A stretch of DNA of 23,065 nt from Promethearchaeota archaeon (GCA_027031765.1 JALVPN010000216.1:1-23065), one strand, 5' to 3'; shown: positions 11,675-17,547, numbered from the stretch's first letter. The notes: generated by a model from the sequence alone, not told the origin. Program-made: numbers and translations.

Positions 11675-11682
11675 CTTATTTG
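11675..11682 (+). promoter_or_regulatory. BRE/TATA (GAAA-CTTATTTG) for Cys-rich small protein
   Basis: gagaaacttatttg, about 50 nt upstream of GTG 11731, which has AGGTG 6 nt upstream. Confidence 0.55.
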
Positions 11683-11730
11683 TGCGGCCTTGGGAACAGT
11701 AGTGAACCGACAACAAAACAGGTGTATGAC

Positions 11731-12033
11731 GTGACCCAGGAGCTCAAGTGCTGTAGACTGTGCGGAGCCTTCAATACCTGCAACCACAAGGGAGAGTGCT
11801 GTCCCGAGTGTCAGTACTTCGACGAGGAAGACTACCTGTGTCTTGCACCTGAAACCCTGAAGAAGAAGAGGAAACGGAGGACGAGAGTAGTCGCGGCTAA
11901 TGCCGAGGCGGACGATGTCGACCCCGGTGTCTTCTTCTTTGAGGACGACGAGGAGGAAGAGGAAGAGGAGGAACTCGCCCCCGAAGAGATTGACGATGAG
12001 GACTTGACCATCAGCGACCTGGACTGGGACTGA
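11731..12033 (+). CDS. Small Cys-rich (8 Cys) protein with basic patch and acidic tail, 100 aa
   Basis: MTQELKCCRLCGAFNTCNHKGECCPECQYFDEEDYLC, then LKKKRKRRTR, then FFFEDDEEEEEEEE...DLDWD. GTG start has an AGGTG SD-like motif and a TATA box upstream. It fills an otherwise empty gap. Confidence 0.85.
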   Translation: MTQELKCCRLCGAFNTCNHKGECCPECQYFDEEDYLCLAPETLKKKRKRRTRVVAANAEADDVDPGVFFFEDDEEEEEEEELAPEEIDDEDLTISDLDWD

Positions 12034-13409: not shown

Positions 13410-14522
13410 ATGCCAAAAGGGGTCTTCATAGCGCACTGGGACGACTTCAGGGGACTGGTGGTGGAACACAAGTATCCGACAAGCATAATGCTTACCGAAA
13501 AGGACCTGAACATGGTCTACTACCACCACGAGAAGGGGCGCACGGGGTCACTCCAGTACGTTGAACTTGAGAACATGAGGGTCGCGTCACTCGCAAGCAG
13601 TGGCAGACCACTATGGATTGTTGTCTTCGTCCTCGACGAGGGAGAGGAGATAGAGGGGCAGGAGGACGTACTGTTGGGTATGGGCCGTTATGTCCTGGCA
13701 ATGCTTGCGCAGCACCCCGAAGGTGTCGATGTCAAGGATGTGCTGGAGAACCAGCGCATGCTACACCGTCCCACACCCGAGCAGGAGTATGCAGACATAT
13801 TTCTCACGCCCTCATCGGCGCTGCTCCTCGAACGCATGGAACAGGAAGGCATTGACCGTGCTACGCGGCTGGCCGTGTGGCTGAATACCCAGGTACAGAG
13901 CGAGGAGATAGACATCAGAGCCGTGGCTGCCCCCCTGATGAAGTCAGGAGTGGTCAGGGTGGAGAAGGTCCAAGGTGCAGGCGAAACAGTCTTCCTCGTA
14001 CGTGATGTGTTCGCCTACAGGGCCCCCCCAGTCCAAGCACTGCAGTACGCACTAGAAACGATGGTACACATTGCGGAAGTATACCAGGACAGGGTCACCG
14101 AGTTCTTCTCTCCGCCGCCACCGGAGAAGGGCTACAACCCGACTGCTGCCACCGACGACCCGAACTCACCGCTCCTCGAGGACCGCCAGAGGATAGCCGA
14201 GATCCTGCGGAATGGCATCCATTATGAAGTGGTGAGGTGCCTCCGGGAACGACCGATGACCTTGGCGGAGATAAGTCAGGCCACCACCTTCCCGGTGGAG
14301 TTAGTGCAAAAGGTGCTCTGGGCCCTAGAGGCTGAGAAGGTCACGACGCACGTGGATGGTGGCAGTCTATGGGTACTGCTCACTGACCCCACTATTGAAG
14401 CGTTCATGCCCGAGTTCGTATTGCCAGATGTTTTCAGGAAAATGAAGGACAGAGAGCTGGATGCCAAGGTCGTGATGAGATACCTTGAGCTACTCGATGA
14501 AGAATGGGGGAGAGCTGAGTGA
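13410..14522 (+). CDS. Longin (uDENN/NPRL2-like) domain protein with two winged-helix-like domains, 370 aa
   Basis: N-terminal VFIAHWDDFRGLVVEHKYP fits the uDENN/NPRL2 start pattern and the beta-beta-alpha-beta-beta-beta-alpha-alpha longin layout. wHTH-like segments: LLLERMEQEG...APLMKSGVVRVEK...VFLV and HYEVVRCLRERPMTLAEISQAT...VQKVLWALEAEKV...WVL. Confidence 0.8.
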   Translation: MPKGVFIAHWDDFRGLVVEHKYPTSIMLTEKDLNMVYYHHEKGRTGSLQYVELENMRVASLASSGRPLWIVVFVLDEGEEIEGQEDVLLGMGRYVLAMLAQHPEGVDVKDVLENQRMLHRPTPEQEYADIFLTPSSALLLERMEQEGIDRATRLAVWLNTQVQSEEIDIRAVAAPLMKSGVVRVEKVQGAGETVFLVRDVFAYRAPPVQALQYALETMVHIAEVYQDRVTEFFSPPPPEKGYNPTAATDDPNSPLLEDRQRIAEILRNGIHYEVVRCLRERPMTLAEISQATTFPVELVQKVLWALEAEKVTTHVDGGSLWVLLTDPTIEAFMPEFVLPDVFRKMKDRELDAKVVMRYLELLDEEWGRAE

Positions 14523-15376
14523 TACGGAACGTCTGCATCCTTGGAGAGCTCGGCAATGTCGTCTATATGAAGGAGTACGCCGAGAGCCAGACAAAGGACA
14601 GGCTCCTTGATTTTCTCGTGAACCTGTCGCAGTTCATCAGTAATGAGGAGTTTGATGGCAAGACCGAACACATGAACCTGCCGAGCACAAGGATATACTA
14701 TACCAAGCGGGACTCGTTCACCTTTGTATTCGTCGCCGACAGGGCCGACGACCCCGCACAGATCGAAGAGAAGACCGAGCAGCTCGTGGAGAGGTTCATG
14801 AAGGACTATGCCAACCTCGCACTTGCATCCCAGCCGCTGGACGGGTTCGACGAGGTCGTCGACGAGATTGCAGTGACAATGGTGAAGGTCGCCATCCTGG
14901 GTTTCGCTGGTGTTGGCAAGACCACAACACTGCACCTCCTCCGTGGCGAGACCCTCCCACTTGTCCATGACCCCACGATTGGTGTCAGCATCAAGAAACT
15001 ACCCACCGAGGTCGAGAACGCGAACATCGTGCTGTGGGACCTTGCCGGCCAGTCGAGGTTCTCAATCCTGTGGGCCAAGATGATAGCCAACGCCCAGGTC
15101 GTGATAATCGTCACGGACAGCACCCTTGAGAACGTGCTGAGGAGCAAGAAGCTCGTGACACTGGTCAGAGAGGAGGTGCCGGATGCCAAGATAATCGGCA
15201 TCGCCAACAAGCAGGACCTCGCAACAGCACTCACGCCCGAGCGGGTGGGCCAGATCCTCGGGATACCCACCTACGAGCTCGTAGCAATCGACATCTCATA
15301 CAGGGACAGGCTCATCCAGATAATAAGACGGGCAATCCTTGAAGGGAAGAGCGAGTCCAAGGACAGGGTGTCATAG
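14519..15376 (+). CDS. Longin domain fused to Arf-related small GTPase, 285 aa
   Basis: N-terminal longin (IRNVCIL..GNVVYMKEY...RIYYTKRDSFTFVFVAD..D...ERFMKDY). G1 GFAGVGKTT, switch I DPTIG, G3 WDLAGQ, F..LW, G4 ANKQDL. GTG start overlaps the upstream stop (GTGA) and has GGGGGAG upstream. Confidence 0.93.
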   Translation: MIRNVCILGELGNVVYMKEYAESQTKDRLLDFLVNLSQFISNEEFDGKTEHMNLPSTRIYYTKRDSFTFVFVADRADDPAQIEEKTEQLVERFMKDYANLALASQPLDGFDEVVDEIAVTMVKVAILGFAGVGKTTTLHLLRGETLPLVHDPTIGVSIKKLPTEVENANIVLWDLAGQSRFSILWAKMIANAQVVIIVTDSTLENVLRSKKLVTLVREEVPDAKIIGIANKQDLATALTPERVGQILGIPTYELVAIDISYRDRLIQIIRRAILEGKSESKDRVS

Positions 15377-15587: not shown

Positions 15588-16178
15588 ATGTCCTTTGATA
15601 TTAACGAAATCCTCCAGAAACTGCAAGAGATCCAGAGTTTTGCGAACAAGGTTGCTGAAACAAAGAGACTTGCAGACCAGCTTGCTGAGAACTTTGCGAA
15701 GATGAAAGTGGCGATCAATGAGACCATCAACAGGAGCTTCGCCGAGATAGCAGACCAGATAGACACGCTGCGCAAGAACATGGAGTTGATGGAGAGCGTA
15801 CAGTCATCGTCATCATCGCCCTCGAGCAGTACCACGCCGCCGCCAGCACCACCCGAACCAGAACCAAAACCGGAGGCCCCAGCGCCGCCAACGCCACCAC
15901 CAGCGCCGCCAACGCCACCACCAGCGCCGCCACCAGCACCACCCGAACCAGAGGTGTCAGCCCCGCCGACGGTGAGTGAGAGCGCCCCGGTGGCCGAGGA
16001 AGCAGGTGACGAGCTCGAGTTCCTCAACCAGCAGAAGGACCGGCTGAAGGCGGAGCTCACAGACCTGAGGTTCGACTACATGCGTGGGTACATCCCGGAG
16101 GAGCAGTACAAGGCCAGAGAGGCCGAGCTCGACGCAAAGCTGAAGGAGATTGAGAAGAAGATCAGTGCACTGCGTTGA
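15588..16178 (+). CDS. Coiled-coil / Ser-Pro-rich linker / C-terminal SHOCT- or steadiness-box-like helical protein, 196 aa
   Basis: Heptad-like N-terminal 70 aa; a linker of PPPAPPEPEPKPEAPAPPTPPPAPPTPPPAPPPAPP; C-terminal LKAELTDLRFDYMRGYIPEEQYKAREAELDAKL. SD-like motif and TATA box present. Confidence 0.88.
   Translation: MSFDINEILQKLQEIQSFANKVAETKRLADQLAENFAKMKVAINETINRSFAEIADQIDTLRKNMELMESVQSSSSSPSSSTTPPPAPPEPEPKPEAPAPPTPPPAPPTPPPAPPPAPPEPEVSAPPTVSESAPVAEEAGDELEFLNQQKDRLKAELTDLRFDYMRGYIPEEQYKAREAELDAKLKEIEKKISALR
15843..15952 (+). repeat. Intragenic coding repeats
   Basis: 21-bp unit CCAGCGCCGCCAACGCCACCA at 15879-15899 and 15900-15920, with a partial third copy at 15921-15932. It is flanked by a 20-bp direct repeat CCAGCACCACCCGAACCAGA at 15843-15862 and 15933-15952. 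Confidence 0.9.
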
Positions 16179-16631: not shown

Positions 16632-17498
16632 TCAGCTCCTCTGTTCAAGGAGTTCCTGTGCAAGTGCCACCAGCCGCCTGGCACGTTCCTCGGAGACCCC
16701 GGACACCTTCTCTGCAACTGTTTCGGGCTTGGCACGTGCGAGCTTTGCAACGGTAGCGTACCCTGCGTCAGAGAGCTTCTTCTTGAGTGCGGGGCCCACA
16801 CCCGCAATCTCGCTGACATCAATCCTCGGGGCCCTCTTCTTGGTCGTCTTCTTGGCCTGAGCAGGGGGTGCTGATGGCGCCTCTGCCGGAGGAGCACTCT
16901 TCTTGGCGGGACGCGCAGGCCGTGCTGGTGCCTTCCTGGCCCCGGCCTTCGGCGCCCCTCTCTTCTTTTTCTCCTCCTTGGGTTCTTCCTCTTCTTCTCC
17001 TTCAATAGGTTCGACAACGACCTGTGGCCTGCGGTCGCGGCTCCGCTCTTTCCGGGCCCCCAGCTCACGCCTGTGACGGACAATCCTGCTGGGCTTCATG
17101 GCCGTCATGCTCGCGGCTTCCATCAGTGCCGCATCAATCTCGTCCGTTATCACGGGCCGTTCTGGGACGGACGACGCAATCTCTTTGAGGACATCAGAAA
17201 TCATGACGGGGCGGTCGGTCTGGCGTCGCTCCAGCTCAGCCGGGGTCGTGTACGCGACAAACTTGGCCTCCCGGATGTAGGGTACGACAACACCCTCAGA
17301 CTCCTTCTCACGCAGATAGCGCCGTGCCACGCTCAGCCTGATGTTGAACCGCTTGGCGAGGTCATAGTGTGTGACTGAGCGTGCCCGCTTCAGGTACGCG
17401 TCGACCTCCCCTTGGACATCCGGCCTGAGGACTGCGTCACGTACTATTTTCTCTCTTTTCGCCGCAGACTTGCCCCATTTCTTCCGGCTGATTGTCAT
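16632..17498 (-). CDS. rps25e: 30S ribosomal protein eS25 with long K/A/P/E-rich extension and C-terminal helix-hairpin-helix domain, 288 aa
   Basis: RKKWGK motif and winged helix VTHYDLAKRFNIRLSVARRYLREKESEGVV...VAYT match eS25. The last 62 aa (DVSEIAGVGPALKKKLSDAGYATVAKLARA...VSGVSEERARRLVALA) form a tandem HhH. ATG at 17498 has AGGAG upstream. Confidence 0.9.
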   Translation of the reverse strand: MTISRKKWGKSAAKREKIVRDAVLRPDVQGEVDAYLKRARSVTHYDLAKRFNIRLSVARRYLREKESEGVVVPYIREAKFVAYTTPAELERRQTDRPVMISDVLKEIASSVPERPVITDEIDAALMEAASMTAMKPSRIVRHRRELGARKERSRDRRPQVVVEPIEGEEEEEPKEEKKKRGAPKAGARKAPARPARPAKKSAPPAEAPSAPPAQAKKTTKKRAPRIDVSEIAGVGPALKKKLSDAGYATVAKLARAKPETVAEKVSGVSEERARRLVALAQELLEQRS

Positions 17499-17547
17499 TA
17501 CTCTCCTGTAAATGGGTTGGAGTCTTCGAGAATGCACCGGGTTCCGC

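Follow-up and report, generated by a model that had tools for sequence, protein, structure and literature searches.

A conserved Thorarchaeota gene pair encoding an NPRL2/NPRL3-like longin protein and a longin-fused Arf-like GTPase: a regulator-GTPase module of inferred mechanism

Small GTPases and longin or roadblock proteins number in the dozens in Asgard archaeal genomes; can the layout of a genome ever tell us which of these proteins attends to which GTPase? In Lokiarchaeon MK-D1 the genes for small GTPases and for longin or roadblock proteins generally do not lie in operons (Tran et al., PMC10933270), and so regulators cannot be matched to GTPases from genome layout. Here we consider a 23,065-nucleotide stretch of DNA from a Promethearchaeota archaeon (GCA_027031765.1, JALVPN010000216.1:1-23065; hereafter the window), taken from a Thorarchaeota genome of 95% completeness, in which the gene for an NPRL2/NPRL3-like protein (P1) runs directly into the gene for a longin-fused Arf-like small GTPase (P2). 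P1 and P2 are a rare genome-encoded match between a GTPase and its probable partner. They form a real, conserved regulator-GTPase module, the mechanism of which we infer. The pair and its junction lie as follows, where each gene is given as an open reading frame (ORF) and the junction carries a Shine-Dalgarno (SD)-like motif.

13410..14522, plus strand: P1, NPRL2/NPRL3-like protein, 370 aa; ATG-start ORF encoding a longin, winged helix 1, a Pro-rich linker, winged helix 2 and two C-terminal helices
14519..15376, plus strand: P2, longin plus Arf-like small GTPase, 285 aa; GTG-start ORF
14506..14522, plus strand: coupling junction; SD-like GGGGGAG at 14506-14512, then the GTG start of P2 and the TGA stop of P1 sharing GTGA at 14519-14522

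Does the overlap of these two genes mean anything beyond chance? The four shared bases had been noted in the original prediction, and both the ORFs and the sequence agree with them. The spacing from GGGGGAG to the P2 GTG is 6 nt, and alignment places the P2 start codon at a position common to its orthologues, which open with MIR. We fetched 29 Thorarchaeota loci around P1 orthologues, 27 of them long enough to show the downstream gene. In every one of the 27 a P2 orthologue lies directly downstream of P1, and in every one the junction overlaps or abuts (a spacing of -4 nt in 18 loci, -8 in 4, -1 in 1, and +1 or +2 in 4); the overlap is therefore beyond what chance would produce. Judged from these junctions, P1 and P2 are translationally coupled. 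Some 35-45 nt before the start of most P1 orthologues (loci L005-L033) lies the strongly conserved element GGTCAAACATTTATG, which looks like an archaeal promoter composed of a B recognition element (BRE) and a TATA box; it is not recognizable 5' of the window's own P1 (13300-13409).

Among other genomes of the window's GTDB family, the P1 family is found in 84 of 85 and the P2 family in all 85, and a survey of the phylum finds a P1 homologue in 292 of 400 genomes, often several per genome. P1 and P2 homologues are adjacent on the same strand, with gaps of 12-40 nt, in two other Asgard families (L040, L048, L055-L058), and they are linked in a different order or orientation in three more (L047, L072, L051, L052). 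As a separate observation, four families of the phylum (f8, f10, f11 and f13; 77 genomes) have a P1 homologue in 3 of the 77 genomes and no P2 homologue at E 1e-30.

Is the pairing confined to a single locus per genome? The same genome holds a second module on another contig.

Contig C91, 28146-37420 (genome G000; locus L004, 4147-13421): second module, in the order P1b, giant gene, P2b

P1b (388 aa), a full-length paralogue, is 24% identical to P1, and P2b is a longin-Arf-like protein 32% identical to P2. Between them sits a giant gene of 2311 aa with SpaA, CarboxypepD_reg and bMG3 Ig-like domains, the ORF of which overlaps the P1b stop by 8 nt; the giant gene is lacking from 6 of 29 Thorarchaeota loci, where P1b directly adjoins P2b. 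Since P1-P2 and P1b-P2b are both linked, the regulator-GTPase pairing was inherited through duplication; it is old, and the two genes were duplicated together. The synteny survey across Asgard genomes that had been proposed as a check on the locus thus finds an adjacency that is strongly conserved in Thorarchaeota and recurs as a duplicated pair. In the literature we searched, neither the conserved translationally coupled pairing nor its duplication was found, and no operon containing an NPRL2-like gene is reported in the papers found on Asgard GTPase fusions. Each part comes from a known family; the conserved, coupled linkage is what that literature lacks. One further genome (G313, contig C1) has two P1b copies 8 kb apart, at 1224438-1225580 and 1232504-1233646, which are 77-78% identical to the P1b of the window genome.

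What kind of protein is P1? An AlphaFold2 (AF2) model built from 44 orthologues (predicted local distance difference test, pLDDT, 89.5; predicted template modeling score, pTM, 0.87) divides it into three folded domains.

13410..13763, plus strand: P1 longin domain, residues ~1-118 (AF2 model, VIA-align, conservation)
13776..14024, plus strand: P1 winged helix 1, residues 123-205, net charge about -4 (AF2 secondary structure)
14172..14411, plus strand: P1 winged helix 2, residues 255-334, ArsR/SmtB-like fold, acidic, net charge about -4 (AF2, VIA-align)

In the model the longin (residues 1-116) runs strand-strand-helix-strand-strand-strand-helix, and in VIA-align its best match is NPRL2 (9o5d_D; Z 11.3, root-mean-square deviation 2.7, 118 residues aligned), followed by a Lokiarchaeota longin (8yqg, Z 10.8), the chain 8fw5_C (Z 10.2) and the Lst4 longin (Z 10.0), with TRAPP and SNARE longins ranking after these. 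Its invariant residues (D11, G15, P23, E30, L33, N34, P67, G90 and R93, with D12, R21 and W69 near-invariant) cluster in the strand 1-2 loop, where the motif [L/W]DDxxG sits, and in the strand 4-5 loop. Winged helix 1 is the best-conserved domain of P1 (mean pairwise identity 71%), a conserved Pro-rich linker, PPPPxKGYNP, joins it to winged helix 2, and two modeled C-terminal helices end the protein. Winged helix 2 matches CzrA (Z 8.9) and an ArsR-like regulator (Z 8.8).

A longin followed by repeated winged helices is the architecture of NPRL2 and NPRL3 (PMC3747258), and the AF2 model, VIA-align and Foldseek together show that P1 has it, with a longin of the NPRL2 type. The original prediction had likened P1 to these proteins, and NPRL2 and NPRL3 are indeed its best PDB matches: a Foldseek search of the PDB gives its 13 top places to NPRL2/NPRL3 chains from GATOR1/SEAC (E 5.7e-5 to 1e-4), with alignments spanning some 400 columns, yet with a template modeling (TM) score of only 0.26. 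Eukaryotic NPR2 clusters occupy rows 5-7 of an ESM Atlas search (about 125 residues aligned), and a feature search there returns only unnamed Asgard clusters. A profile of the 44 orthologues run against PDB sequences finds no NPRL chain at E up to 10, and Pfam and NCBIfam give sub-threshold winged helix-turn-helix matches only. Homologues of P1 number 145, nearly all from Candidatus Thorarchaeota, and the window's P1 is about 45% identical to its orthologues. Liu et al. have already reported an NPRL2-like family in Thorarchaeota; P1 most likely belongs to it, and the P1 family is probably not new.

P2 is a longin joined to a G domain, with the following parts.

14519..14875, plus strand: N-terminal longin, residues ~1-119, sigma-adaptin/TRAPP/Mon1-LD1 type (VIA wide search, profile match, Pfam in relatives)
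14879..15343, plus strand: G domain, residues 121-275 (sequence, alignments)
14900-14926, plus strand: P-loop GFAGVGKTT, residues 128-136 (sequence)
14972-14983, plus strand: PTIG, residues 152-155, with T153 of switch I (sequence)
15035-15052, plus strand: WDLAGQ, residues 173-178, with Q178 of switch II (sequence)
15206-15217, plus strand: NKQD, residues 230-233 (sequence)

The AF2 model of P2 is usable for the longin part only (pLDDT ~70-85), the alignment being too shallow for the G domain (pLDDT 40-65), and it shows the longin order of two strands, a helix, three strands and two helices. The VIA wide search matches this domain to a TRAPP core subunit (Z 13.2), synbindin (12.9) and Sec22 (12.9) over 116-120 residues, and, across residues 1-122, to VAMP7 and the sigma, mu, delta and zeta small chains, at Z 11-13 overall. 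Both proteins thus open with a longin, as had been claimed for the locus. A profile of the P2 longin finds AP-2 sigma at E 1.3e-7, and the opening MIR resembles sigma adaptins. Among 24 P2 family members, Pfam finds Fuz_longin_1 in 6 and Clat_adaptor_s in 4; the window's P2 itself has no Pfam longin match, and an ESM Atlas feature search with its longin returned no match. Because hhalign relates the P1 and P2 longins with a probability of only 15% and their best matches are distinct, we regard the two as different subtypes and not as close paralogues.

The Arf-like G domain with intact P-loop, PTIG and WDLAGQ holds up both in its motifs and in Pfam, where Arf (PF00025) matches residues 121-271 at E 8.4e-20 and 71.4 bits against a cut-off of 22.3, compared with 14.7 bits for Gtr1_RagA; the top PDB sequence matches are Arl1 and Arf1 (E 1e-16 to 1e-13). 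G133, K134, T153, G177 and N230-D233 are invariant among 49 diverse family members. P2 orthologues are about 80% identical overall, and across 21 of those from Thorarchaeota the mean pairwise identity is 97% in the G domain (minimum 93%) and 73% in the longin, with the P1 domains at 54-71%. By this measure the Thorarchaeota G domain appears to be under unusually strong constraint for a prokaryotic small GTPase. At its N-terminus P2 has a longin in place of the amphipathic helix and myristoylated Gly2 membrane anchor of Arf; such N-termini are found among Asgard Arfs (PMC11914678). A representative search places P2 in a large family of longin-Arf-like proteins, many with extra C-terminal domains. 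That Asgard longin and small-GTPase families are known had been anticipated, and both the NPRL2-like family and GTPases fused to longins or roadblocks, longin-Arf fusions among them, are published (PMC10933270, PMC11914678, Liu et al.).

How, then, might P1 act on P2? Our preferred reading, which we hold tentatively and rate as just short of probable, is that P1 and P2 are a cognate pair from one transcript, in which a small GTPase is served by a regulator or adaptor with a longin domain. The two proteins would be made in matched amounts, and the NPRL2-type longin of P1 would dock on P2, most likely beside P2's own sigma-adaptin/TRAPP-type longin. Dimers of longins or roadblocks serve small GTPases as platforms (PMC3747258); here, the two longins together would form a platform carrying the G domain, and a longin-longin heterodimer of P1 and P2 is plausible. 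In C9orf72, SMCR8 and NPRL2 the WD..GP motif sits where P1 has its DDxxG loop, between strands 1 and 2, and we predict that this loop of P1 would be turned toward the nucleotide pocket. Since P1 conserves no arginine finger, it would then modulate hydrolysis or exchange and contribute no catalytic residue itself, much as MglB or the non-catalytic half of the eukaryotic longin GAPs (C9orf72, NPRL3 or FNIP) would do. The two acidic winged helices may serve as protein-binding scaffolds that pass the state of the switch to partners, possibly including the coiled-coil protein encoded downstream.

Could P1 instead be a catalytic GTPase-activating protein (GAP) in the manner of GATOR1, FLCN or SMCR8, complexes to which the original prediction likened the pair? 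What defines GAP longins is a GP motif preceding strand 2 together with an arginine finger close by, and their strand 1-2 loop faces the catalytic pocket (PMC12290439). Across the P1 superfamily the N-terminal consensus is MPxGxxVx[R/K]WD[D/N]xxG; P1b holds the full WDDELGP, and Thorarchaeota P1 keeps DDxxG[F/L], with W usually L. Arg66 of the window's P1 lies in the strand 4-5 loop.

13605..13607, plus strand: codon of P1 Arg66, strand 4-5 loop; H, Y or F in orthologues (consensus xxx[H/Y/F]PGW)

As R66 is not conserved in orthologues, we ruled it out as an arginine finger. R64 of the P2 longin was also considered, as a finger in cis, and rejected: it is near-invariant in Thorarchaeota only, where two sequences have K, and varies in the family at large.

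Several observations weigh against our preferred reading, and the catalytic motifs are among them. The proline of the GP motif is missing in P1, and the other families have G[A/L/T], leaving GP to P1b alone. The strand 4-5 loop, its equivalence taken from secondary structure and not from superposition, holds no conserved Arg in any subfamily, P1b included. Because R66 varies and no subfamily conserves a loop arginine, the case for P1 as an arginine-finger GAP is not supported, and a catalytic GAP of the GATOR1, FLCN or SMCR8 kind is not indicated; the P1 family looks more like the non-catalytic half of longin GAP complexes, or like an MglB-type regulator. Pfam NPR2 (PF06218) and NPR3 (PF03666) give no match to P1 at E up to 1. 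The longin is the least conserved domain of P1 (54%) and stands beside a G domain at 97%, which fits poorly with P1 as the main constraint on the G-domain surface. Nor is linkage uniform: many Asgard P1-like or P2-like genes have no partner within 4 kb, and a sister-family genome (G311) with a P2 orthologue 60% identical to that of the window has no P1-like gene within 4 kb of it. Finally, a physical interaction between P1 and P2 is putative. A prediction of the complex (full-length P1 and P2 with GTP and Mg) scored 0.49, 0.50 and 0.57, with one unrelated control at 0.56, and speaks neither for nor against binding.

If P1 supplies no arginine finger, might it be simply an effector or adaptor of P2, binding one nucleotide state as the SRX domain of the signal recognition particle (SRP) receptor subunit SR-alpha binds SR-beta-GTP, with winged helices that recruit proteins and with hydrolysis and exchange unaltered? 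The missing finger suits such a role, operon linkage is explained by it equally well, both longins have SRX chains in their match lists (1nrj_A and 7obq_y for P1; 1nrj, 5ck3 and 2go5 for P2), and P2 has a weak Pfam SRPRB match (E 1.9e-4). We nonetheless consider it unlikely, given that SRX is a middling match (Z 8.7-10) beside the NPRL2 or TRAPP longins and that the best-conserved residues of the P1 longin include the strand 1-2 loop, which faces the catalytic pocket in GAP longins. A distinct proposal would arrange the partners differently: P1 and P1b would form an NPRL2:NPRL3-like heterodimer acting in trans on P2 and P2b, and the longin of P2 would not be P1's partner. The genome does have two full-length paralogues at 24% identity, as NPRL2 and NPRL3 are themselves paralogues, and the complete WDDELGP of P1b beside the degenerate motif of P1 recalls a catalytic/non-catalytic division of labor. 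However, of 58 Thorarchaeota genomes with a completeness of 85% or more, only 35 have P1b, and its lack in the other 23 argues against an obligate P1:P1b dimer, P1 and P2 being near universal; each paralogue is, moreover, linked to its own GTPase paralogue, and P1b likewise has no conserved arginine in the strand 4-5 loop. We regard this arrangement as very improbable.

Do the winged helices point to DNA instead? P1 could be a DNA-binding transcription regulator that acts through its tandem ArsR-like winged helices, with the longin sensing the nucleotide state of P2, in effect a GTPase-controlled transcription factor. Winged helix 2 matches ArsR/SmtB repressors (Z 8.2-8.9), row 4 of the ESM Atlas search aligns 170 residues of P1 to ArsR/SmtB-type proteins, and some P1 homologues are named "ArsR family" or "predicted transcriptional regulator" by their sources. 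Levine et al. (PMC3747258) list DNA, RNA or protein as possible partners of such winged helices. The charge of P1 tells against DNA: the protein as a whole is at -23, its winged helices at about -4 each, and over the 44 orthologues both winged helices carry a net negative charge, as do their recognition helices, so DNA binding is disfavored. NPRL2 and NPRL3, which share the build of a longin with tandem winged helices, have no shown DNA-binding role, and in GATOR1 structures their C-terminal domains contact other subunits. A transcription factor is accordingly a decidedly unlikely identity for P1.

Where does a cognate regulator-GTPase pair of this kind stand among known systems? Like NPRL2-NPRL3 of GATOR1, which acts on RagA/B (yeast Npr2-Npr3 on Gtr1), P1 combines a longin with tandem winged helices and has a genetic tie to a small GTPase. 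It differs in having neither a Pfam NPR2/NPR3 match nor a conserved equivalent of NPRL2 Arg78; its client is Arf-like, not Rag-like, and has its own longin, and P1 is encoded with that GTPase and not with a paralogue. A search of the genome itself for the IML1/DEPDC5 family gave no match, but the controls gave no match either. With C9orf72-SMCR8 (CSW), a GAP for Arf GTPases, the likeness is a longin pair that would act on an Arf-family G domain; W33-D34...G38-P39 of C9orf72 (PMC12290439) has the same spacing as the WD[D/N]xxG of the P1 family, which is complete as WDDELGP in P1b. In contrast to that complex, P1 lacks a DENN module, no arginine finger of the SMCR8 type turned up in it, and Thorarchaeota P1 proteins mostly have L for the W and carry F or L in place of the P. 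SR-alpha SRX with SR-beta likewise combines a longin-like domain with an Arf-like GTPase, and SRX is among the matches of both longins; yet SR-beta is membrane-anchored and has no fused longin, the SRX matches are weaker, and the window holds no link to SRP.

Prokaryotic systems offer further parallels. MglB-MglA is an operon of a roadblock/longin-superfamily regulator and a GTPase, and MglB matches the P2 longin at Z 11.0; however, MglB forms homodimers of one domain per chain, no platform domain is fused to MglA, and P1 has two extra winged helices. Structural work on MglA-MglB reportedly shows MglB to act without an arginine finger. Rag/Gtr and the published Asgard longin- or roadblock-fused GTPases share with P2 a G domain covalently joined to a dimerization platform, but the platform of P2 is N-terminal and longin-type, and its G domain scores 71 bits with Arf against 14.7 with Gtr1_RagA. 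We might go further and speculate that P1-P2 is a true longin heterodimer, made of the GTPase's own longin in cis and an NPRL2/C9orf72-like longin, and that P1-P2 and P1b-P2b are a direct prokaryotic forerunner of CSW, GATOR1 and folliculin, from before the GTPase and the platform split into separate polypeptides; we think this improbable as a whole. As a ready-matched pair for biochemistry, P1 and P2 could show whether archaea already used longin control of Arf/Rag-type switches, the principle of GATOR1, folliculin and C9orf72-SMCR8, and if so whether such control calls for an arginine finger.

Is the module made of two genes only? The original prediction described a two-gene prototype. The pair is conserved, as we have seen, but it is not strictly two genes.

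15588..16178, plus strand: probable third member, 196 aa; N-terminal coiled coil, Ser/Pro-rich linker, SHOCT/GvpG-like C-terminal hairpin

This coiled-coil gene follows directly 3' of the P2 orthologue in 22 of the 27 Thorarchaeota loci, at 44-68% identity, and it was not found beside P1-P2 pairs from outside Thorarchaeota. The C-terminal segment of its product, LTDLRFDYMRGYIPEEQYKAREAEL, resembles SHOCT/GvpG-type hairpins, with Pfam matches to GvpG (E 4e-4) and a CdvA-like family (5e-3) that both fall below the cut-off. Two other ORFs of the window lie nearby.

11680-12033, plus strand: 117-aa protein, rich in Cys, with a KKKRKRR patch; its long acidic tail ends in DLDWD; no Pfam match
16632-17537, minus strand: 301-aa ORF; domain of ribosomal protein S25 (Pfam E 2.5e-9) and C-terminal helix-hairpin-helix domain (HHH_5, E 2.4e-10), with a long charged linker

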